Shown here: positions 3,260-55,371 of the stretch, piece after piece
Layout: every line of letters begins with the position of its first letter
How positions within the stretch are numbered: the stretch's first letter is position 1
DNA from: Minisyncoccota bacterium
GTDB taxonomy: Bacteria; Patescibacteriota; Minisyncoccia; JAHIHE01; JAGLIN01
Direction of reading: 5' to 3'
DNA length: 64,000 bases
NCBI GenBank assembly: GCA_028691985.1
Contig: JAQUYG010000001.1
Location: 27,617 to 91,616, forward strand
Made by a program: the position numbers and the translations under genes
The notes under the pieces: generated by a model
What the model was told of the DNA's origin: nothing
The model's input: only the letters and a program-made list of their open reading frames with translations
The model's database searches: none

Positions 3260-4999
3260 CTAACACGAAATTGCTGTTTTGATGTCCGGATATTTGGCAG
3301 TATCCTTTCTTGCTAACCTATAAGAAGTTCCTTCCCCGGGGGTCGCTTCCAAGTTATAAAGGTTTCCAGTCTCTTCCTGATATTTAACCATCTTATCTCT
3401 CATAAAATTCAGCACTTCTTCAGCAAAGGCAGAACCTTTTTCGCTTGCAATATTAGTTTTAGAACCGAAGAAATTGATGAGCGCCTCGTTCATTCCGATG
3501 ATTCCGATAGTGGAAAAATGGTTACCCCAATATTCACCTTTTTGTATTCTTATGTTACCCAGATAAAATTTTGAATATGGGTAAAGACCTTTTTCTGTAA
3601 ACTTTTCCAAGGCTTTTCTCTTGATTTCCAAACTCTCCTTGGCAATATCCATCAGCTTCTCCAACCTGGCCAAAAATTCTTTTTTATTCTTCGACAGATA
3701 ACCGATTCTCGGCAGATTGACAGTTACTACACCGATAGAACCCGTCATCGGATTCGCCCCAAAAAGTCCACCACCGCGCTTAAGTAGTTCGCGATTATCA
3801 AGTCTTAGCCGACAGCACATCGAGCGAGCATCCTCCGGACTCATATCGCTATTAATATAGTTGGAGAAATAAGGAATTCCGTATTTTGCCGTCATTTCCC
3901 ACAACGGTTCCAGGTTAGGATCTTCCCAATTGAAGTCTTTAGTAATATTGTAGGTTGGAACAGGAAAAGTAAACACCCTTCCGCTCGAATCACCCTCGGA
4001 CATCACATCTGCAAAAGCCTTATTAAGGATACTGATCTCTTCTCCGAAGTCTTTATATTGATCCTTCTGCGGCACACCACCGATAATAACCGCCTCATCC
4101 GCCAGAGTAGAAGGCACATTGAGATCCATTGTTATGTTTGTGAATGGCGTCTGAAAACCGACACGAGTAGGCACATTCATATTGAATAAGAACTCTTGCA
4201 TCGCCTGTCTAACCTCGCGATAGCTGAGTTGATCGTACCTGATAAATGGTGCAAGCAAGGTGTCAAAATTGGACATCGCCTGCGCTCCGGCCGCTTCACC
4301 CTGAAGCGTATAGAAAAAATTCACCAACTGACCCAATGCCGCTCTGAAGTGCTTGGGAGGAGCACTCTCCACTTTTCCTTTAACACCTCCAAATCCCCTA
4401 GTCAAAAGATCCTTCAGATCCCATCCACAACAATAGACTGACAAAAGACCCAGATCATGAATATGGAAATCTCCGTCCACATGGGCATCGCGCACCTCCG
4501 GCGGATAGATTTTTTCAATCCAATACTTTGAAGTGACGATGTTGGCGATATAATTATTGAGTCCCTGCAACGAATAGGACATATTACTATTCTCTTTCAC
4601 CTGCCAATCCATCTCATTGAGATAGTCATCAACCAAATCCAAAGAGTTCTTGAGCACTTCCTGATTCTCACGAAGCCTCCTGTGTTGCTCTCTATAGAGA
4701 ATGAAAGCTTTAGCCGTGTCTATATAATTTTCTCTTATCAGATAGTTCTCAACAATATCCTGAATTTCTTCAACCGTAGGAATCTCCGCCTTCAGCTTCC
4801 CTCCACCGTTGCGAACAGTGAATCTTTTATTTATTTCGTGCTCTATCTTTCTTGCCAAATCTTCAGCATTTCTTTTATCGCCTTCTTCCGTCGCCTTGAA
4901 TGCTTTTGCGATAACACTCACCAACTTCTTGTTATCAAATTTAACAATTCTTCCATCCCTTTTCCTGATCTGAGCCACCTTTATTTTTTTAGATTCCAT
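3260..4999 (-). CDS. nrdD: Anaerobic ribonucleoside-triphosphate reductase (class III) with ATP-cone. The C-terminal Zn-ribbon/glycyl-radical region appears to be absent.
   Basis: The likely true start is MESKKIKVAQIRKRDGRIVKFDNKKL (ATP-cone); the ORF track extends to 5095 via an upstream alternative start. NrdD hallmarks are present: ...GNHFSTIGIIGMNEALINF... and NLEATPGEGTSYRLARKDTAKYPDI. It ends with TAG at 3260-3262 right after KYPDIKTAISC. Confidence 0.85.
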   Translation of the reverse strand: MESKKIKVAQIRKRDGRIVKFDNKKLVSVIAKAFKATEEGDKRNAEDLARKIEHEINKRFTVRNGGGKLKAEIPTVEEIQDIVENYLIRENYIDTAKAFILYREQHRRLRENQEVLKNSLDLVDDYLNEMDWQVKENSNMSYSLQGLNNYIANIVTSKYWIEKIYPPEVRDAHVDGDFHIHDLGLLSVYCCGWDLKDLLTRGFGGVKGKVESAPPKHFRAALGQLVNFFYTLQGEAAGAQAMSNFDTLLAPFIRYDQLSYREVRQAMQEFLFNMNVPTRVGFQTPFTNITMDLNVPSTLADEAVIIGGVPQKDQYKDFGEEISILNKAFADVMSEGDSSGRVFTFPVPTYNITKDFNWEDPNLEPLWEMTAKYGIPYFSNYINSDMSPEDARSMCCRLRLDNRELLKRGGGLFGANPMTGSIGVVTVNLPRIGYLSKNKKEFLARLEKLMDIAKESLEIKRKALEKFTEKGLYPYSKFYLGNIRIQKGEYWGNHFSTIGIIGMNEALINFFGSKTNIASEKGSAFAEEVLNFMRDKMVKYQEETGNLYNLEATPGEGTSYRLARKDTAKYPDIKTAISC

Positions 5000-26629: not shown

Positions 26630-26669
26630 AAAAAACCATAAAAAACAGGAAGAGCTATCTTCCTGTTTT

Positions 26670-27377
26670 TTATTTTACCAAATAACTTTCTCGTTCCTTT
26701 TTATCAAACCGCTCAATCGCATAACGAAGCATTGTTCTTGGCATTTTTTTGTGATATTTAAGCAGAAAGATTTCTTCTGCCGCCAAGTCCCGCTTTCCCA
26801 CTTCCCGCAGCATCCACCCGACTGCTTTATGCATAAGATCGTGCTCGTCAAAAAGAAGAATTTCTGCAATCTTCAAGGTATCTCCAAAATCGTTTTTACG
26901 GATAAAAGCAAGCGTGGCTATTATCGCAATCCTCCTCTGCCATAGATTATCAGACTTAGCAAGTTCATAAAGCGCCCCCCTGTCCTTATTCAAAAGATGA
27001 TAGCCGAGAATCTTCGGAGCCGAGACATCTACTAAGTCCCAATTATTTATCTTCTTTGAATTCCTTATATAAAAATCAAAGATATTTTTTCTCATGTCCG
27101 CATCGCCTTGCTCGTATTTTTTCATAAGGATAAGAAGCGCGCAGAACCTTTCTTCGTGTATTTTACTTTCAAGCAGCTTTTTCACATCTCCGAACTCTAA
27201 ATCATAGAAACCTCTGACAATCATCCGCTGTACAGGGACTTTTATCCCCCAAAACACATCTCCTTCGCCATATTCCCCCTTGCCTGTTTTGAAAAACCCC
27301 TGCAGAATTTTCGCTTGATTCTCATTAGCCTCATCTGCTAAAACTTTTCTCAAACTACCCAATTTATTATCTTCCAT
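26670..27377 (-). CDS. DNA alkylation repair protein (AlkD-like HEAT-repeat glycosylase family)
   Basis: …FWGIKVPVQRMIV…NNWDLVDVSAPKILGYHL…LWQRRIAIIATLAFIRKNDF…HDLMHKAVGWMLREVGKRD. Confidence 0.65.
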   Translation of the reverse strand: MEDNKLGSLRKVLADEANENQAKILQGFFKTGKGEYGEGDVFWGIKVPVQRMIVRGFYDLEFGDVKKLLESKIHEERFCALLILMKKYEQGDADMRKNIFDFYIRNSKKINNWDLVDVSAPKILGYHLLNKDRGALYELAKSDNLWQRRIAIIATLAFIRKNDFGDTLKIAEILLFDEHDLMHKAVGWMLREVGKRDLAAEEIFLLKYHKKMPRTMLRYAIERFDKKERESYLVK

Positions 27378-34241: not shown

Positions 34242-34269
34242 TGTCATTCCGAGCTTATTGAGGAATCGC
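34242..34269 (+). repeat. Partial copy (5' hairpin only) of the TGTCATTCCG repeat family
   Basis: TGTCATTCCGAGCTTATTGAGGAATCGC, compared with the copy-1 start TGTCATTCCGGGCTTGACCCGGAATCTGCG. Confidence 0.4.
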
Positions 34270-38728: not shown

Positions 38729-38751
38729 CTGTCATTGCGAAGAGGCAATCT
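38729..38751 (+). repeat. Partial copy (5' hairpin) of the TGTCATT repeat family
   Basis: CCTGTCATTGCGAAGAGGCAATC (ATTGC/GCAAT hairpin) lies 65 nt upstream of full copy 1. Confidence 0.35.
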
Positions 38752-38815: not shown

Positions 38816-39008
38816 TGTCATTCCGGGCTTGACCCGGAATCTGCGTTATATTTCGCTTTTACTTTACTATAACACTTAATCGTTATGCTTCGTAGATTGC
38901 GGATATTTCGCAGTAACGAAATTCCGGAATGACAAATATTGTGAGTTTGACATTTGAGAAAAATTCTTCGGAATATTTTATATAAAAACTATCAACGAAT
39001 TAAGTAGC
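38816..39008 (+). repeat. Full copy 1 of a ~195-nt structured repeat, candidate ncRNA / MITE core
   Basis: It is ~85% identical over ~195 nt to 49956-50147. It starts TGTCATTCCGGGcttgaCCCGGAAT (8-bp hairpin) and has a subterminal AATTCCGGAATGACAAA. Confidence 0.6.
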
Positions 39009-39027
39009 CTGTAAGGGAATAACAAAA

Positions 39028-39060
39028 AAAGAAACGATTTCAAAATCGTTCTTTTTTATG
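39028..39060. terminator. Bidirectional intrinsic terminator (glnA 3' end)
   Basis: AAAAAAAGAAACGATttcaaaATCGTTCTTTTTT. Confidence 0.55.
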
Positions 39061-49687: not shown

Positions 49688-49837
49688 ATATTTATTTTAT
49701 CACAAATTATATGCCATTTTAACGGTAAACCCTATTTCAGAAATAAATCAATATTAAACAAACTAGAATGAAATTAACAGATTAAAGCTATTATAACCCA
49801 GAAAGAAACAAAGTCATTTTTTCTATGATGAATAGAT

Positions 49838-50241
49838 TATAAGAACCTCTGAAAAACTAAGAGCTATTGATTTTAAGTGCTAACAGCTCCTGTACAAGCT
49901 AGATAATTCGAGAACAAAACACCGCATAAATTTCATCCATATTATATTTTTCGTGTGTCATGCCGGGCCCCAACCCGGTATCTTCGTTATATTTCGCTTT
50001 TACTTTACTATAATGCTTAATCGTTATACTCCGTAGATTCTGGATATTTTGCAGTAAAGAAATTCCGGAATGACAAATACTGCGTTTTCGGCATTTTAGA
50101 AAAATTCTTCGAAATATTTTATACAGGAACTGTCAGTGAATTAAGTAACTTGTACAATTCCTGCAGAGGCGGGAATCTAGACTTGAAGGAAAAAGATAAA
50201 TTTAAAAATCGATATTTCTTAGTTTTTCAGAGGTTCCTATG
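49838..50241. mobile_element. MITE-like non-coding element (404 bp). It has 22-bp terminal inverted repeats and nested subterminal inverted repeats, and carries full copy 2 of the structured repeat.
   Basis: TIR-L AAGAACCTCTGAAAAACTAAGA at 49841-49862. The reverse complement of TIR-R (50217-50238) is AGGAACCTCTGAAAAACTAAGA, a 21/22 match. A nested pair GCTCCTGTACAAGCT (49881) / ACTTGTACAATTCC (50151) lies inside. There is no ORF over 60 aa. Confidence 0.5.
49956..50147 (+). repeat. Full copy 2 of the ~195-nt structured repeat
   Basis: It aligns end-to-end with 38816-39008. The 5' hairpin ATGCCGGGccccaaCCCGGTAT keeps pairing through a G·U wobble relative to copy 1. Confidence 0.6.
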
Positions 50242-50258: not shown

Positions 50259-50543
50259 TCAATAACTATCTTTTTTATCTTCTGAAAATAATCTCTTTTT
50301 TATAATTTCTAATTTATCCTCTCGCGATAACTTTTTGATTCGAGCCTCTTCCTTGGTCGCAGTCGACCTAGTTCGGAAAGATTTAGAAAACAAAAGTTCC
50401 ACCGGCCGACGAGACTTTGTATATTTCGCACCCAACTTCGAAAAATTATGTTCTTCCACTCTCCGCGCCAAATCCACCGTAATCCCGGTATAAAGTGTCC
50501 CGTCCGCACATTTTAATATATAGAGGTAATACATAATATTCAT
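50259..50543 (-). CDS. GIY-YIG nuclease superfamily protein (UPF0213/YhbQ-like)
   Basis: MYYLYILKCADGTLYTGITVDLARRVEEHN is the GIY…YIG motif. Confidence 0.75.
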   Translation of the reverse strand: MNIMYYLYILKCADGTLYTGITVDLARRVEEHNFSKLGAKYTKSRRPVELLFSKSFRTRSTATKEEARIKKLSREDKLEIIKKRLFSEDKKDSY

Positions 50544-50657
50544 TAGACTGCACCCTTAACAAAATAATATTTTCTTATTTATTATCTCACATTTAAAGAT
50601 AAGACAAAAGGACAGTCCTTAAAAATAGACTGCCCTTCCGTGTGCTCGGCAAAAGTA

Positions 50658-51488
50658 CTACCGCCTCTTCCCGGCATGTTCATTGCTCTGTATGTAGCTT
50701 ACGCAACTACCCTGATTCCTAAATCCAAGATCTCTCCATCCGCCCCGCTTGTACTGATTCTTGCTTTTAAGATGAAGTTTGTTTTTCACCTTCACATTGA
50801 TCAGATCGAAATCTTCGTTTCCAGAGTCATCTTCAGCCTCCAGATTAATAAAATACATACCATTATCGACAGCAGTCGTGTCCCAAACGAACAATGATTC
50901 ATCTGTAAAAGAAATACCGTCACTGTTATTGATGATCTCCACTACAACATTATCATGGTCTCTGATAGTCAGAGCATAGCCCTTCAGATTATCGTCCTGC
51001 ACTGAACCACGGATGTCCACACTGCCAGAAACGGTTTCGTCATCTGCCGGCTGCAATATTTCTACTTCGGGGTCAGTTGTGTTCGCGACCGGTTCATCAA
51101 CAACCTCGAATTCTCGCGTGAGCCTTATATTGCTCTCTCCTGCATCCTCAAGGGGATTAAAAACGAAACAATAGGCTCCTTTTCCCCAAGAAGTCGTATC
51201 GGCAGTAGCAACAAAATCTCCACTACCTGACCATGAATAACTGTCGGAGTGCCCATCAACATTTCCCAAAACTGTTCCTGTTTTTGCAGCGCAAGTACCT
51301 TTTCGCACCGCCCAAGAAACATTATCATTGTCATCGTCTATCAAAGTCGCCCTAAAATCGACCATGCCGTAAACTTCTTCTCCTGTTCCTGGAGAGGTTA
51401 TCTCAGCCGAGCGCTCGACTTCCGCCACGCAGCTCAGAACTGGAAATAATGCCATAAAGGCTGTTAGGAATAATGCGATTTTTTTCAT
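50658..51488 (-). CDS. Hypothetical secreted protein
   Basis: Signal peptide MKKIALFLTAFMALFPVLSCVA; acidic, beta-rich. Confidence 0.4.
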   Translation of the reverse strand: MKKIALFLTAFMALFPVLSCVAEVERSAEITSPGTGEEVYGMVDFRATLIDDDNDNVSWAVRKGTCAAKTGTVLGNVDGHSDSYSWSGSGDFVATADTTSWGKGAYCFVFNPLEDAGESNIRLTREFEVVDEPVANTTDPEVEILQPADDETVSGSVDIRGSVQDDNLKGYALTIRDHDNVVVEIINNSDGISFTDESLFVWDTTAVDNGMYFINLEAEDDSGNEDFDLINVKVKNKLHLKSKNQYKRGGWRDLGFRNQGSCVSYIQSNEHAGKRR

Positions 51489-51776
51489 ATTTTTGATATT
51501 AGACTTTTAATATATAGAAGGTGCTGATTGGCGTAAAACTGGTCCGTGCTAAAAAATATTTTCAACTCCTCCCTTCAAGTAATTATGCTAAATCTTCTAC
51601 TTTTAGGCAAATAAGTTATACACAACGCCAGAATCCTATAGGCTGGCATCAATCATTCGGAAGATCGCATATCTTCGGCAAAATATTTCTTTTTGCCCTC
51701 TCGGAATATACTCAAAAGAATGCTATAATTCAATGTAAGTGAAAAAAGACTAAAGATTCACAGCCCGTATCAATAT

Positions 51777-53915
51777 ATGAAAACTCTCTTAAAACAATAT
51801 TTCGGATATGATCAGTTCCGTCCGCTTCAAGAAGAAATCATCCAGAATGTCATCGAAAAAAATGACACTTTTGTGCTAATGCCGACCGGGGGAGGAAAGT
51901 CGCTCTGCTATCAATTGCCGGCACTCAAATTCAAAGGCATTACACTGGTAGTCTCCCCCCTTATCGCGCTTATGAAAGACCAAGTGGACGCGCTTCAGTC
52001 TTGCGGCATCCGCGCGGAGTTCATCAACTCCAGTCTGTCGGCAGGAGAAATACAGAAAATCTATGAAGAGACGGAAGGTGGTGAAATTAAAATTCTCTAT
52101 ATCGCGCCGGAAAGATTTGCTCTCAAAAGCTTCCAAGCTTGGGTACAATCTTTGCCCGTAAGCCTCATAGCGGTTGATGAAGCGCACTGCATATCTGAAT
52201 GGGGGCATGACTTCCGTCCTGAATACCGTAATTTGAGATATCTTCGCAAACTCTTTCCAAAAGTGCCGCTTATCGCCCTGACGGCAACCGCCACCGACAA
52301 AGTCCGCGAAGACATCATCAACCAGCTCGAGCTTCAAGAAGCGAAAATTTTTATTTCAAGCTTCAATCGAGAAAATCTGCATCTAAGTGTCGTGGAAAAG
52401 AAAAATGCCTTTCCCAAGCTCCTCGATATTCTGGACAAATACAGAGATGAATCCTCGATTATCTATTGTTTTTCGCGCAAAGAAACAGAAAAAATCGCCG
52501 AGAAACTCATCGGTAACGGCTTCAAGGCCTGTGCCTACCACGCGGGACTTTCCAAGGAGAAAAGAAAAAAGGCTCAAGATAGTTTCATAAAGGACAAGGT
52601 AAATGTTATCGTTGGCACTATCGCCTTCGGAATGGGTATCAATAAACCTGATGTACGGCTAGTCGTACATTACACCTATCCCAAAACTCTCGAAGGCTAT
52701 TATCAGGAGATCGGCCGTGCCGGACGAGACGGACTTCCGAGCGATTGCGTCATGTTTTATACCTACGCCGACACTCGCAAGCATGAATTTTTTATCAATC
52801 AGATCTATGACCAAGAGTTGAAAGGCCGTGCTGAAGAAAAGCTGGGGGAAATGATGACCTATGGCGAGCTTACCACTTGCCGGAAGAAATATGTCCTCCG
52901 CTATTTCGGGGAGAATTTCGAGAAAGATAATTGTGGCAGTTGTGACATCTGCCTCACAGATAAAATAATGTTTGATGCTACCGTCGTTTCCCAAAAAATC
53001 CTCTCCGCCGTCATCCGAACCGAAAACAAATTCGGTAAAGGCTATATCGCACAAGTGCTACGCGGGAAAAAAAATCAAAAAATATCAGCAAACGGACATG
53101 ACAGACTCTCCGTCTTCGGCATCGTCCGAGATTTTTCCGAAAATGAACTGGGGCAAATCATAAACCACTTGGTCGGTTTGGAATATCTGCGAAAAGACAT
53201 AGGCAAATATCCGACGCTAGGCATCACGCGAAAAGGAGTGGATTTCCTGAAAGGTAGTGAGCTTTTAGAAATTCCAAAGCCTCAAGCGGACATCATCAAG
53301 GAAATCAAGACCGGCAAATTCGATTACAACACAGAGCTGTTTGAGAAACTGCGCGAACTACGAAAAAGTCTGGCAGAAAAAGCCAATGTTCCTCCTTTTG
53401 TCATTTTTGGAGATCAGAGTCTGCAGGAAATGGCCTATTACCTACCGCAAAATAGAGAGGCTTTCGCGCGTATCGGCGGAGTAGGTGTAAAAAAATTGGA
53501 AGACCTGAGCGAAATCTTCCTTGGCACAATCGTGGATTTCACTACAAAAGAAAATCTTGCCCCTATCGAGATCCCCGATAAACCTTCCATGCGAACCACG
53601 AAAAATCCAAAAGTAGAAACCGCCTTGATAACTCAAGGGCTCATAGCTCAAAAAATACCTCTTGCTAAAATTGCAGAGAAGCAAGGACTGAAAATCGGCA
53701 CGATTATTAATCACATCACTCAGATAATTGACAGAGGGGAAGAGTTGGACCTGAGTTATATAGATTTTCCCCCAGAAAAAATAACGGAAATCGCCTCAGC
53801 TTTCGAAGAATGTGGTAATGAAAGGTTAAGACCGATTTTCGACTGCCTCGACGGAAAATATTCTTATGATGACATCCGTATGGCAGTAATCTTGATCAAA
53901 AATCGAGAAAAGTAA
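51777..53915 (+). CDS. recQ: ATP-dependent DNA helicase RecQ (with RQC/HRDC region)
   Basis: …FGYDQFRPLQEEII…LMPTGGGKSLCYQLPA…; the DEAH region is VDEAHCISEWGHDFRPEY; then …TATAT… and the Zn-binding CxxC…C. Confidence 0.9.
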   Translation: MKTLLKQYFGYDQFRPLQEEIIQNVIEKNDTFVLMPTGGGKSLCYQLPALKFKGITLVVSPLIALMKDQVDALQSCGIRAEFINSSLSAGEIQKIYEETEGGEIKILYIAPERFALKSFQAWVQSLPVSLIAVDEAHCISEWGHDFRPEYRNLRYLRKLFPKVPLIALTATATDKVREDIINQLELQEAKIFISSFNRENLHLSVVEKKNAFPKLLDILDKYRDESSIIYCFSRKETEKIAEKLIGNGFKACAYHAGLSKEKRKKAQDSFIKDKVNVIVGTIAFGMGINKPDVRLVVHYTYPKTLEGYYQEIGRAGRDGLPSDCVMFYTYADTRKHEFFINQIYDQELKGRAEEKLGEMMTYGELTTCRKKYVLRYFGENFEKDNCGSCDICLTDKIMFDATVVSQKILSAVIRTENKFGKGYIAQVLRGKKNQKISANGHDRLSVFGIVRDFSENELGQIINHLVGLEYLRKDIGKYPTLGITRKGVDFLKGSELLEIPKPQADIIKEIKTGKFDYNTELFEKLRELRKSLAEKANVPPFVIFGDQSLQEMAYYLPQNREAFARIGGVGVKKLEDLSEIFLGTIVDFTTKENLAPIEIPDKPSMRTTKNPKVETALITQGLIAQKIPLAKIAEKQGLKIGTIINHITQIIDRGEELDLSYIDFPPEKITEIASAFEECGNERLRPIFDCLDGKYSYDDIRMAVILIKNREK

Positions 53916-53924
53916 CAGATTACA

Positions 53925-53965
53925 AAAAAAAGGACTGGCCTCGCAGAATAGAAAGGCCGGTCTTT
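53925..53965. terminator. Bidirectional intrinsic terminator between recQ and the PIF1-like helicase gene
   Basis: AAAAAAAAGGACTGGCCtcgcagaatagaaaGGCCGGTCTTTTTTAT. Confidence 0.55.
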
Positions 53966-53988
53966 TTTATATCCAATTTGCCGGCTTC

Positions 53989-55371
53989 TTATCCAAAAAG
54001 CCCGCCGACATACTTTTCTCCACCATTTTTCTCGAGAAAATCTTTTTGCGTTTTTACCAGGTTTTTCTTGTCCATTTTTAGATAGTCTTTTTCGTCTTCT
54101 TCTGATTTAGCGAGCAATTCGCGATCAAGGATAATGACTTCCTCCTTCGCCCGAAGCGCCATCTCGTTAAAGCCCACCAAGCTCATTCCCGCCAGCGAAC
54201 GCACGCGGGAAAGCGCCACATAACCCATACCGAATTCGAAAGTTTTACGCAGATCGATTTCTGCCGCATCCAAGCTCATGCCCTGACTCTTGTGCACCGT
54301 AATCGCCCACGCCAGCCTGAGCGGCACCTGCCGGACCGAAGCAATGACCTCTTTGCCATCCTCCACGACCCATTGCTCCGGATAAGCCGTAATCAGATTG
54401 CCATCAAAAGTTCTTACCACAGGATAATTATCGTTTTCTTCGTCAAAATCCACAACCTTGCCCAAAGTACCATTAACAAAGCCCTTATTAAAATTATTTT
54501 TGACGAACATCACCACCGCCCCGATTTTCAGTGTCAGATTCTGCGGCGCCAAGCAATACCCTTTTCTCAATCTCTCCACCAGATTATCAACCCCTTCTGC
54601 TTCCATCTCGTAAGAAATCTCCTTAGTCTTCAGCTTATCCAGTTCCTGAAAATTATAATCCTCGACATCAATGTTATGCGTATGCAATTTTGTAGGCTTT
54701 ATCTCAGATTTGACTGTCTTACCCAAACGCTTTTCTAATATTTTTATAGTCTTCTCCGTCACTTCATTTTTTCGGATATCCCCGAGCAATTGCAAAAATT
54801 TCTTATCCGATTGTCGATGTTGCTCCTCCAGATAACAAACTCTGATATCCATATTATTCCAAATATGAGATTCTGTGACAAAGCGCCCGTCTTTCCCGCC
54901 CCGCTTGACCGGAGGCAACTGAAAAAAATCGCCGCAAAAAACCACCTGCATACCACCGAAAGGTCTCATGTCTTCTTTAAATGTCCTGCAAATCCAATCA
55001 ATCAGATCAAGTTGCTTGGCATTGAGCATCGAAATCTCATCTATTATCAGAACCTTGGTAAAAGCCACGCTACGGAATAAATAATTTTTCTTTTTAAGTG
55101 CGTTAATCTTATCAATTAACAACTCATCTTCAATCCCCATTCCGCACCAAGAATGAATCGTACGCCCACCCAGATGTGTCGCCGCAATGCCCGTAGAAGC
55201 AGTAACCGCCACTGCGATATTATTATCCCTAAGATATTTTATATATTGCGTCAACAAAAAAGTCTTGCCCGACCCCGCCGGACCCGTCAAAAAAACGCTC
55301 TCCCCCGATTTCAATATATCCAAAGCTTGCTTCTGTTTCATAATTTGTTTTTTTCCTAGATAAAATACCAT
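53989..55371 (-). CDS. PIF1/RecD-like SF1B DNA helicase
   Basis: Walker A FLTGPAGSGKTFLL; …VLIIDEISMLNAKQLDLID…FGGMQVVFCGDFFQLPPV; C-terminal …AITVHKSQGMSLDAAEIDL…. Confidence 0.8.
   Translation of the reverse strand: MVFYLGKKQIMKQKQALDILKSGESVFLTGPAGSGKTFLLTQYIKYLRDNNIAVAVTASTGIAATHLGGRTIHSWCGMGIEDELLIDKINALKKKNYLFRSVAFTKVLIIDEISMLNAKQLDLIDWICRTFKEDMRPFGGMQVVFCGDFFQLPPVKRGGKDGRFVTESHIWNNMDIRVCYLEEQHRQSDKKFLQLLGDIRKNEVTEKTIKILEKRLGKTVKSEIKPTKLHTHNIDVEDYNFQELDKLKTKEISYEMEAEGVDNLVERLRKGYCLAPQNLTLKIGAVVMFVKNNFNKGFVNGTLGKVVDFDEENDNYPVVRTFDGNLITAYPEQWVVEDGKEVIASVRQVPLRLAWAITVHKSQGMSLDAAEIDLRKTFEFGMGYVALSRVRSLAGMSLVGFNEMALRAKEEVIILDRELLAKSEEDEKDYLKMDKKNLVKTQKDFLEKNGGEKYVGGLFG

Follow-up and report, generated by a model that had tools for sequence, protein, structure and literature searches.

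A mosaic of SRM-like hairpin repeats as a probable non-coding insertion next to a YhbQ-type GIY-YIG gene in Patescibacteria

A 64-kb stretch of contig JAQUYG010000001.1 from a Minisyncoccota (Patescibacteria) genome, hereafter the window, contains a palindromic interval of about 400 bp at positions 49838-50241, between a gene encoding a small GIY-YIG nuclease and a hydrolase gene. The initial annotation of this DNA described the interval as a 404-bp unit resembling a miniature inverted-repeat transposable element (MITE), delimited by 22-bp terminal inverted repeats (TIRs), and proposed that it was either a non-autonomous transposable element or the gene of a long foldback RNA. Our analysis favours, with a probability of roughly 0.6, the reading of the interval as a palindromic insertion without coding capacity, mosaic in structure and built from hairpin repeats of the MITE/REPIN kind, and not a single TIR-bounded MITE. 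Judged from the sequence, the mosaic has three layers: a kernel with a hairpin of the type of the Ssn-related motifs (SRM), contained within a dispersed repeat of ~266 bp, itself contained within a locus-specific 36-bp inverted repeat. The unit that recurs elsewhere, as delimited by sequence comparison, is the ~266-bp repeat (49891-50156), which is bounded by the inner inverted pair and not by the TIRs; these limits had been missed in the initial annotation.

The ~266-bp repeat was found four times, in at least two genomes of Paceibacteria; the copies occupy intergenic sites that are not homologous to each other and have pairwise identities of 76-86%. The copy located in the interval (copy 2) is 85.7% identical to positions 986-1251 of locus L008, from a relative, and 81% identical to the copy of locus L007; its nhmmer E-value is 1.9e-94. 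Copy 1, at ~38.8 kb in the same window, matches the interior of copy 2 at 84% (49956-50154 against 38816-39013, BLAST) and, as initially noted, is devoid of the TIRs. The L007 copy, carried by another contig of the same sample, spans positions 4082 to ~4340 (4021-4340 by nhmmer). At 4331-4340, a methyltransferase gene takes its final codons and its stop (…ILKKTS*) from the 5' end of this copy, indicating that the insertion remodelled the 3' end of that gene. The fourth copy, present in L008 and L021, lies between RecQ and the GIY-YIG gene, hence on the opposite side of the GIY-YIG gene, and is 85-86% identical to 49891-50156. Just upstream of this copy, at ~1285-1301 of L008, a run of C is followed by a run of G over ~19 nt (printed CCCCCCCCCGGGGGGGGGG), which could be a genuine G/C palindrome or an assembly artefact. 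Outer arms are lacking around each of the other three inner-repeat copies. In addition, Logan contigs from three runs and two organisms terminate exactly at 49983/49984 or at 50093/50094, and such breaks at the kernel imply that further near-identical copies are present in those samples. The exact kernel 21-mer TATTTCGCTTTTACTTTACTA was detected in two metagenome contigs, one of which is the same locus, and in no viral or genome contig.

The repeat does not appear to encode a protein. The longest open reading frame (ORF) of the interior is 34 aa, in agreement with the earlier statement that none exceeds 60 aa, and a six-frame translation of the element, used as protein query to recover spurious ORFs predicted over other copies, returned nothing at E<=10. 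A 25-aa ORF (MPKTQYLSFRNFFTAKYPESTEYND and variants), found at 50017-50094 (-), at 38876-38953 (-) and at the equivalent position of L008, has the same start and stop in three of the four copies; it is probably spurious, since it has no obvious ribosome-binding site and is frameshifted in L007. The idea that the ~266-bp unit forms a conserved long stem was likewise rejected because, short termini aside, the complementarity between its left and right modules stays at shuffle level in three of the four copies.

At the heart of the repeat is a 120-bp kernel, which starts with TGTCATGCCGGGCCCCAACCCGGTATC and finishes with CCGGAATGACA, copy 1 starting with TGTCATTCCGGGCTTGACCCGGAATC. On sequence grounds, we interpret this kernel as a decayed inverted doublet of a hairpin composed of GTC, ATTCCGGG-loop-CCCGGAAT and C. 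The hairpins of the window follow a common design, with GTC, a palindrome AT(T/G)CC…GG(A/T)AT and then C, and fold as single-stranded DNA (ssDNA); both the GTC preceding the palindrome and the C following it are present at 38817-38841 and 49957-49982. The G.T pair of the hairpin at 49957-49982 works on the + strand only. In the gap separating the repeat unit from the outer right arm, the hairpin at 50157-50177 is preceded by GTACA rather than by GTC. Sites of this kind are over-represented: 202 kb of Patescibacteria loci contain 15 strict GTCAT + hairpin + C sites, against 0.04 in shuffled sequences (~375-fold enrichment), and 40 viral contigs carry the 24-nt hairpin pattern, with ~0.2 expected by a rough hand estimate. 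Some viral contigs display same-strand hairpin arrays of 6-8 copies. Two IMG/VR loci with a GC content of ~0.57, L034 (3854-6412) and L063 (1041-6222), carry 6 and 8 copies, respectively, of CAC-GTCATTCCGGGCTTGACCCGGAATCCA, all on one strand and between genes, with another repeat, CCCTCCCTGGCGTCCAGCGAACGTAGTGAGCATGGACGGCAGGAACCCC, interspersed among them; neither locus has a GIY-YIG ORF. Within the window, the five SRM-like hairpins, which start at 34243, 38731, 38817, 49957 and 50157, all have the same orientation, on the + strand. This strand has a negative GC skew across the window and most genes are located on the other one, which would place the motifs on the presumed leading-strand template (two-sided chance ~0.06).

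The kernel is homologous, in reverse orientation, to the interiors of hairpin doublets identified in L019, a more distant, syntenic locus. L019 contains three elements of 167-168 bp with perfect inverted hairpin ends of 27-29 bp and unrelated flanks, one of which lies 22 nt past the stop codon of the GIY-YIG gene, the same spot as the insertion in the window. Each of these elements has an identical stem variant at both ends, either CCGGC..GCCGG or CCGGG..CCCGG, so that the hairpin is preserved by compensated changes and the two ends evolve together. Inverted hairpin doublets are thus represented by the L019 elements A-C and by doublets of the Neisseria-type NTS repeat (see below), the doublet of the window kernel being decayed.

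The hairpin motif looks like a member of the dRS3/NTS/SRM repeat class, by analogy with the Neisseria system. NTS (CGTCATTCCCGCGMAVGCGGGAATCYRG) is a Neisseria repeat that contains dRS3 (Chenal et al. 2025, PMC11893778). SsnA, a GIY-YIG nuclease of 94 aa with a single domain, binds this repeat exclusively as ssDNA and in a single orientation, and cuts a few bases upstream of it; cleavage is governed by the 3 nt that precede the palindrome, and binding by the C that follows it (PMC11893778). SRMs flank 71% of the ssnA homologues, the motif is spatially associated with the 94-aa GIY-YIG gene, and the motif class acts as ssDNA, the nuclease being unable to bind the RNA version (PMC11893778). The window hairpin shares with NTS, dRS3 and SRM the succession of GTC, the palindrome ATTCC…GGAAT and C, as well as a multi-copy, intergenic distribution in inverted doublets that adjoin a gene for a 94-aa single-domain GIY-YIG protein, and canonical NTS sequences are found in related Patescibacteria loci. 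By contrast, the stem of the window type is CCGGG/CCCGG where that of NTS is CCGCG/GCGGG, the window hairpins are one position off the published degenerate SRM pattern, and the host belongs to the Patescibacteria, whereas the published work stresses Pseudomonadati (PMC11893778). Furthermore, unlike in the NTS-ssnA pair, the neighbouring nuclease, judged by its closest relatives, is of the YhbQ/UPF0213 type rather than cd10448, and the hairpins lie on one side of the gene.

Canonical Neisseria-type NTS sequences were observed at 15987-16069 of L019 and 17592-17666 of L070, as inverted doublets of 75-83 bp (e.g. TGTCATTCCCGCGAAGGCGGGAATCCAG), and as a single site at ~16715-16738 of L067. The L019 and L070 doublets match exactly the published SRM pattern, HGTCWYN(0-2)YYVSBRHN(0-5)WNVSBRGN(0-2)RNCYNB, which the L067 site does not. 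In all three loci, these canonical hairpins are 6-9 kb away from the GIY-YIG gene.

Neisserial intergenic mosaic elements (NIMEs) are repeat modules flanked by dRS3 inverted repeats. The elements described here resemble NIMEs in being intergenic mosaics of 50-170-bp modules that are bounded by inverted hairpin copies and either nested or abutted; they differ from them in their unrelated module sequences, in the few copies seen here and in the additional 36-bp outer inverted repeat. They also resemble the REP/REPIN/BIME sequences mobilised by RAYT proteins (IS200/IS605-type Y1 transposases), in which short hairpin repeats form inverted doublets, with arms that evolve in concert through compensated stem changes, no clear target duplication and an action thought to involve ssDNA. 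Unlike in these sequences, the head is GTCAT instead of GTAG and the spacer between hairpins is long (~110 nt). No RAYT or Y1 transposase was noted among the few window ORFs that were scanned. With bacterial MITEs such as Correia elements, which combine TIRs with a TA duplication, the interval has in common a small size, the absence of coding capacity, TIRs, a possible TA flank and a presence that varies between relatives; it departs from them in that its outer TIRs have a single copy and enclose the repeated unit, and in that no matching insertion sequence (IS) was found. Our literature search yielded nothing relevant on MITEs or REPs in Patescibacteria. By analogy with these systems, the repeats may represent a new Patescibacteria family that works most like REPIN/NIME and NTS repeats.

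Comparison with related genomes, which had been put forward as a check in the initial annotation, showed that the interval is variable at this locus. The spacer separating the GIY-YIG stop codon from the next gene is 571 bp in the window, 181-187 bp in L008/L022, L021 and L023 (three assemblies of the closest relative), and 104 bp in L009-L011. In the alignment, homology ends ~20 nt past the GIY-YIG stop codon and restarts just outside the left arm, at a conserved promoter, and therefore the whole ~400 bp, arms included, corresponds to extra DNA in the window. This DNA is missing from the syntenic spacer of two relatives, which are ~80% identical to the window at the DNA level, while a third, L019, has a simple doublet. 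The promoter-like site at 49817-49790 (-), which belongs to the native flank, marks on this comparison the left limit of the inserted DNA. A GTCATTC sequence in the empty site of L008 was considered as an excision footprint and discarded, as it aligns with native sequence in L009 and in the window. Independent ENA and JGI assemblies (L002, L005/L006) have the same sequence at this position, which argues that the interval is not an assembly artefact.

The outermost layer has a different distribution from the repeat it encloses. The 22-mer AAGAACCTCTGAAAAACTAAGA is present at 49841-49862 (+) and, with one mismatch, at 50217-50238 (-), as originally described, and the arms extend to 36 nt with 32/36 positions paired (BLAST), 0 such pairs being expected by chance. 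No further copy of the 22-mer was detected at <=3 mismatches in the window (expected 0, 100 shuffles). In our comparison set of 80 fetched loci (741 kb), the same threshold retrieved only re-assemblies of the same locus, and none was found in the collection of viral contigs; the search for other TIR copies that had been recommended thus came back empty in these collections. The 22/36-bp arms are locus-specific in all collections scanned, and the notion that they define a family is not supported by these sequences. The second, nested inverted pair initially reported near 49881 and 50151 was recovered by a repeat search of the window as two pairs, 49880-49897/50119-50136 (83%) and 49891-49909/50138-50156 (84%). 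The limits of the ~266-bp unit correspond to this second pair.

We propose that the hairpin folds when its strand is exposed as ssDNA and that a small single-domain GIY-YIG nuclease would bind it and nick a few bases upstream. The units may then spread and recombine via their hairpins, in a REPIN/NIME fashion, through a trans-acting nuclease or transposase that is not encoded in the window. The spacer between the GIY-YIG and hydrolase genes could constitute an insertion hot spot, and the nested arms of copy 2 could result from successive insertions or from palindrome formation. The adjacent YhbQ-type GIY-YIG protein is a candidate cognate nuclease. As a side effect, the GIY-YIG gene is separated from the promoter of the following operon by a highly stable foldback, which could terminate or insulate transcription.

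Several observations weigh against this interpretation. The repeat copies are no closer to one another than is the orthologous DNA of the two genomes (79-82%), and recent mobility is therefore indicated by the contig breaks alone. No base-precise empty site was found among the compared relatives. The window contains no exact match to the published SRM pattern; its hairpins fit that pattern only with one substitution each, and at this tolerance the pattern is non-specific (5 matches, against 3.75 in shuffled sequences). The link between hairpin and GIY-YIG gene is also fragile. Six of the nine sampled Patescibacteria lineages have no such hairpin within 500 bp of the homologous gene, and in these six lineages the GIY-YIG homologue is packed into operons, the three hairpin-positive lineages being close relatives with long spacers around the gene. 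Such motifs are also missing from the surroundings of three UPF0213-like genes carried by plasmids or chromids. We estimate roughly at ~0.1 the probability that the gene-hairpin adjacency arises by chance, the window being excluded, and the adjacency is therefore suggestive, not statistically secure. In addition, the GIY-YIG protein is of the UPF0213/YhbQ type, while the Ssn clade of PMC11893778 is cd10448. No mobilising enzyme was found, although the window was not fully screened for transposases. Finally, the outer arms are left unexplained by the mosaic account.

The alternative that fares best, and which we nevertheless hold to be improbable, is that the YhbQ-type GIY-YIG protein is an Ssn-like ssDNA endonuclease that regulates and spreads the hairpins next to the 3' end of its gene, an arrangement known from the NTS-ssnA pair. 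The GIY-YIG gene has a hairpin at no more than 320 bp in the window, in L008/L021 (on its other side) and in L019 (24 nt away), the protein has the length and single-domain architecture of SsnA, and flanking motifs are frequent among ssnA homologues, as mentioned above. Besides the weak statistics of the adjacency and its restriction to closely related lineages with unusually long spacers, the SRM is found only 3' of the gene in the window and in L019, and only 5' in L008, so that no locus has motifs on both sides within 500 bp. The protein itself points in another direction. Its best PDB matches are UPF0213 proteins (1YWL, 2e-17), it is 38% identical to E. coli YhbQ (4e-18) and 47% to B. subtilis yazA, which agrees with the family assigned initially, and judged by its sequence it is not demonstrably a member of the Ssn clade. 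Relatives keep the gene in synteny with RecQ and MsrB/MsrA, and it resembles a housekeeping repair gene: small GIY-YIG genes repeatedly have RecQ and/or PIF1 helicase genes, or NUDIX/LexA-like genes, as neighbours, and the company of RecQ and PIF1 suggests a conserved role in DNA repair. Small GIY-YIG genes of Patescibacteria are 70-85% identical across named classes (L009, L019, L021, L064 and L072 compared with window 50259-55371). There is no second GIY-YIG gene in the window. The broader proposition that, besides the cd10448 Ssn proteins, the YhbQ/UPF0213 GIY-YIG proteins of Patescibacteria are site-specific ssDNA nucleases for GTC-hairpin-C, driving the copying of doublets into intergenic DNA, would be highly speculative at this stage.

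We consider it still less probable that the interval is a classical MITE, in which a 402-bp unit within the 36-bp arms transposes with the inner repeat as cargo, mobilised by a DDE transposase encoded elsewhere, for example an IS630/Tc1-like enzyme with TA duplication. The initial proposal of a non-autonomous transposable element is supported in part: the interval is non-coding and palindromic, contains a dispersed repeat and is absent in two relatives. Moreover, the arms are long and significant, the DNA missing in L008/L009 coincides with the arm ends to ~10 nt, and the arms are bordered by TA at both sides. This TA is uninformative as a target-site duplication, as it is self-complementary and cannot be separated from the TIR sequence, and no clear target-site duplication was identified at the arm ends, the comparison species being ~80% identical and the junctions good to ~10 nt. 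Against transposition of the arm-bounded unit, no second copy of the outer arms was found in the window, in the 741 kb of related and other loci or in the viral collection, and all three other copies of the inner repeat are without arms. No autonomous partner came to light, the window not having been fully screened for transposases, and a single IS was seen in a relative, an intact element of the IS256 family at 14878-16147 of L021 (also in L022), with a PF00872 transposase, imperfect 25-bp TIRs (GATAGTGTATCC...) and an 8-bp target duplication, CGCGCTGA; the window has no such element at the syntenic position. This element was rejected as autonomous partner, its ends and TIRs being unrelated to the arms of the window.

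An RNA function is the least probable of these alternatives. In this case, the repeats would be small RNA genes or 3'-untranslated-region elements, with the nested stems as RNA helices, and copy 2 would give rise to a long foldback transcript or serve the GIY-YIG gene as terminator or insulator. The fold of the region, which had been suggested as a check, is indeed more stable than that of shuffled sequences (481 nt, z -6.7 on the + strand and -6.2 on the - strand). With a z of only -1.7 for the interior alone, almost all of this stability comes from the outer arms; the interior is thus no better folded than shuffles, and the minimum-free-energy structures differ among copies. The location of the element, where a GIY-YIG terminator is expected, the hairpin and T-run that follow copy 1 and the L007 copy on the + strand, and the G.U pairs of two hairpins, which form on the + strand only, would fit an RNA. 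RNAalifold applied to three copies gave a covariation term of -1.09 on the + strand (slightly favourable), against +2.23 on the - strand (unfavourable), a signal that we regard as weak and ambiguous. By contrast, no Rfam family reached the gathering score anywhere in the window, relaxing the threshold to an E of 10 added nothing but noise, a tRNA scan returned nothing, and the + orientation of copy 2 and of two L019 elements is antisense to both neighbouring genes. Taken together with the lack of significant complementarity between left and right modules in three of the four copies and with the documented action of the homologous hairpin class as ssDNA, without RNA binding by the nuclease (PMC11893778), these results leave the long foldback RNA gene of the initial annotation unsupported.

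Under the preferred reading of a mosaic hairpin insertion, the NTS/SRM hairpin-repeat class would extend to the reduced genomes of Patescibacteria, where the hairpins appear to be assembled as doublets resembling MITEs and as larger mosaics, with differences among close relatives at one locus. The NTS/SRM type of the kernel hairpin, which went unnoticed in the initial annotation, gives a possible meaning to the proximity of the GIY-YIG gene. Were the YhbQ/UPF0213 proteins indeed to drive the copying of these hairpins, the result would be a REPIN-like mobile system powered by a GIY-YIG protein, and the little-understood YhbQ/YazA family would gain a function. If the protein does not act like Ssn, the elements would merely be another family of intergenic palindromic repeats. 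The coordinates of the features are collected in Table 1.

Table 1 Coordinates of the hairpins, repeats, arms and neighbouring features in the window
Feature	Position	Strand	Remarks
Repeat copy 2, ~266 bp	49891..50156	+	Ends are the inner inverted pair TGTACAAGCTAGATAATTC / GAATTAAGTAACTTGTACA
Kernel, 120 bp	49956..50075	+	Inverted ends TGTCATGCCGG...CCGGAATGACA
SRM/NTS-like hairpin GTC-ATGCCGGG-CCCCAA-CCCGGTAT-C	49957..49982	+	ssDNA fold -5.7 kcal/mol
Degenerate partner half-site TGTCATTCCGGAATTTC	50059..50075	-	Collapsed to palindrome ATTCCGGAAT; no fold
Second NTS-like hairpin ATTCCTGC-AGAG-GCGGGAAT-C (ATTCCTGCAGAGGCGGGAATC)	50157..50177	+	-6.0 kcal/mol on +, -3.6 on -
Outer left arm, 36-nt inverted repeat	49839..49874	.	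Includes the left TIR; 32/36 pairing with right arm (BLAST)
Outer right arm	50205..50240	.	End 18 nt from the GIY-YIG stop codon
Repeat copy 1	38816..39017	+	5' module missing or diverged; arms absent
Copy 1 hairpin GTC-ATTCCGGG-CTTGA-CCCGGAAT-C	38817..38841	+	-8.5 kcal/mol, z -4.4
Short SRM-like hairpin GTC-ATTGC-GAAGAG-GCAAT-C, upstream of copy 1	38731..38750	+	Weak, -2.5 kcal/mol
Solitary degenerate SRM-like sequence GTCATTCCGAGCTTATTGAGGAATC	34243..34267	+	–
GIY-YIG nuclease gene, 94 aa, single-domain, YhbQ/YazA (UPF0213) type	50259..50543	-	PF01541 2.5e-16, residues 4-75
Promoter-like ATGACT-16-TATAAT, hydrolase/MsrB/MsrA operon	49790..49817	-	Native flank, conserved in L008 and L009

The genes surrounding the element are all on the minus strand, in the order Big_7 protein, GIY-YIG, element, hydrolase, MsrB, MsrA and C39 peptidase, with RecQ divergent, and this gene order is kept in the relatives. 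The GIY-YIG and hydrolase proteins match those of an NCBI 'Candidatus Pacebacteria' MAG at 100% identity. A bidirectional terminator hairpin with T-runs on both strands is located at 39024-39058, between repeat copy 1 and glnA. The other 36-nt palindrome revealed by the self-BLAST of the window, at 26638-26673, is an ordinary bidirectional terminator, also with T-runs on both strands.

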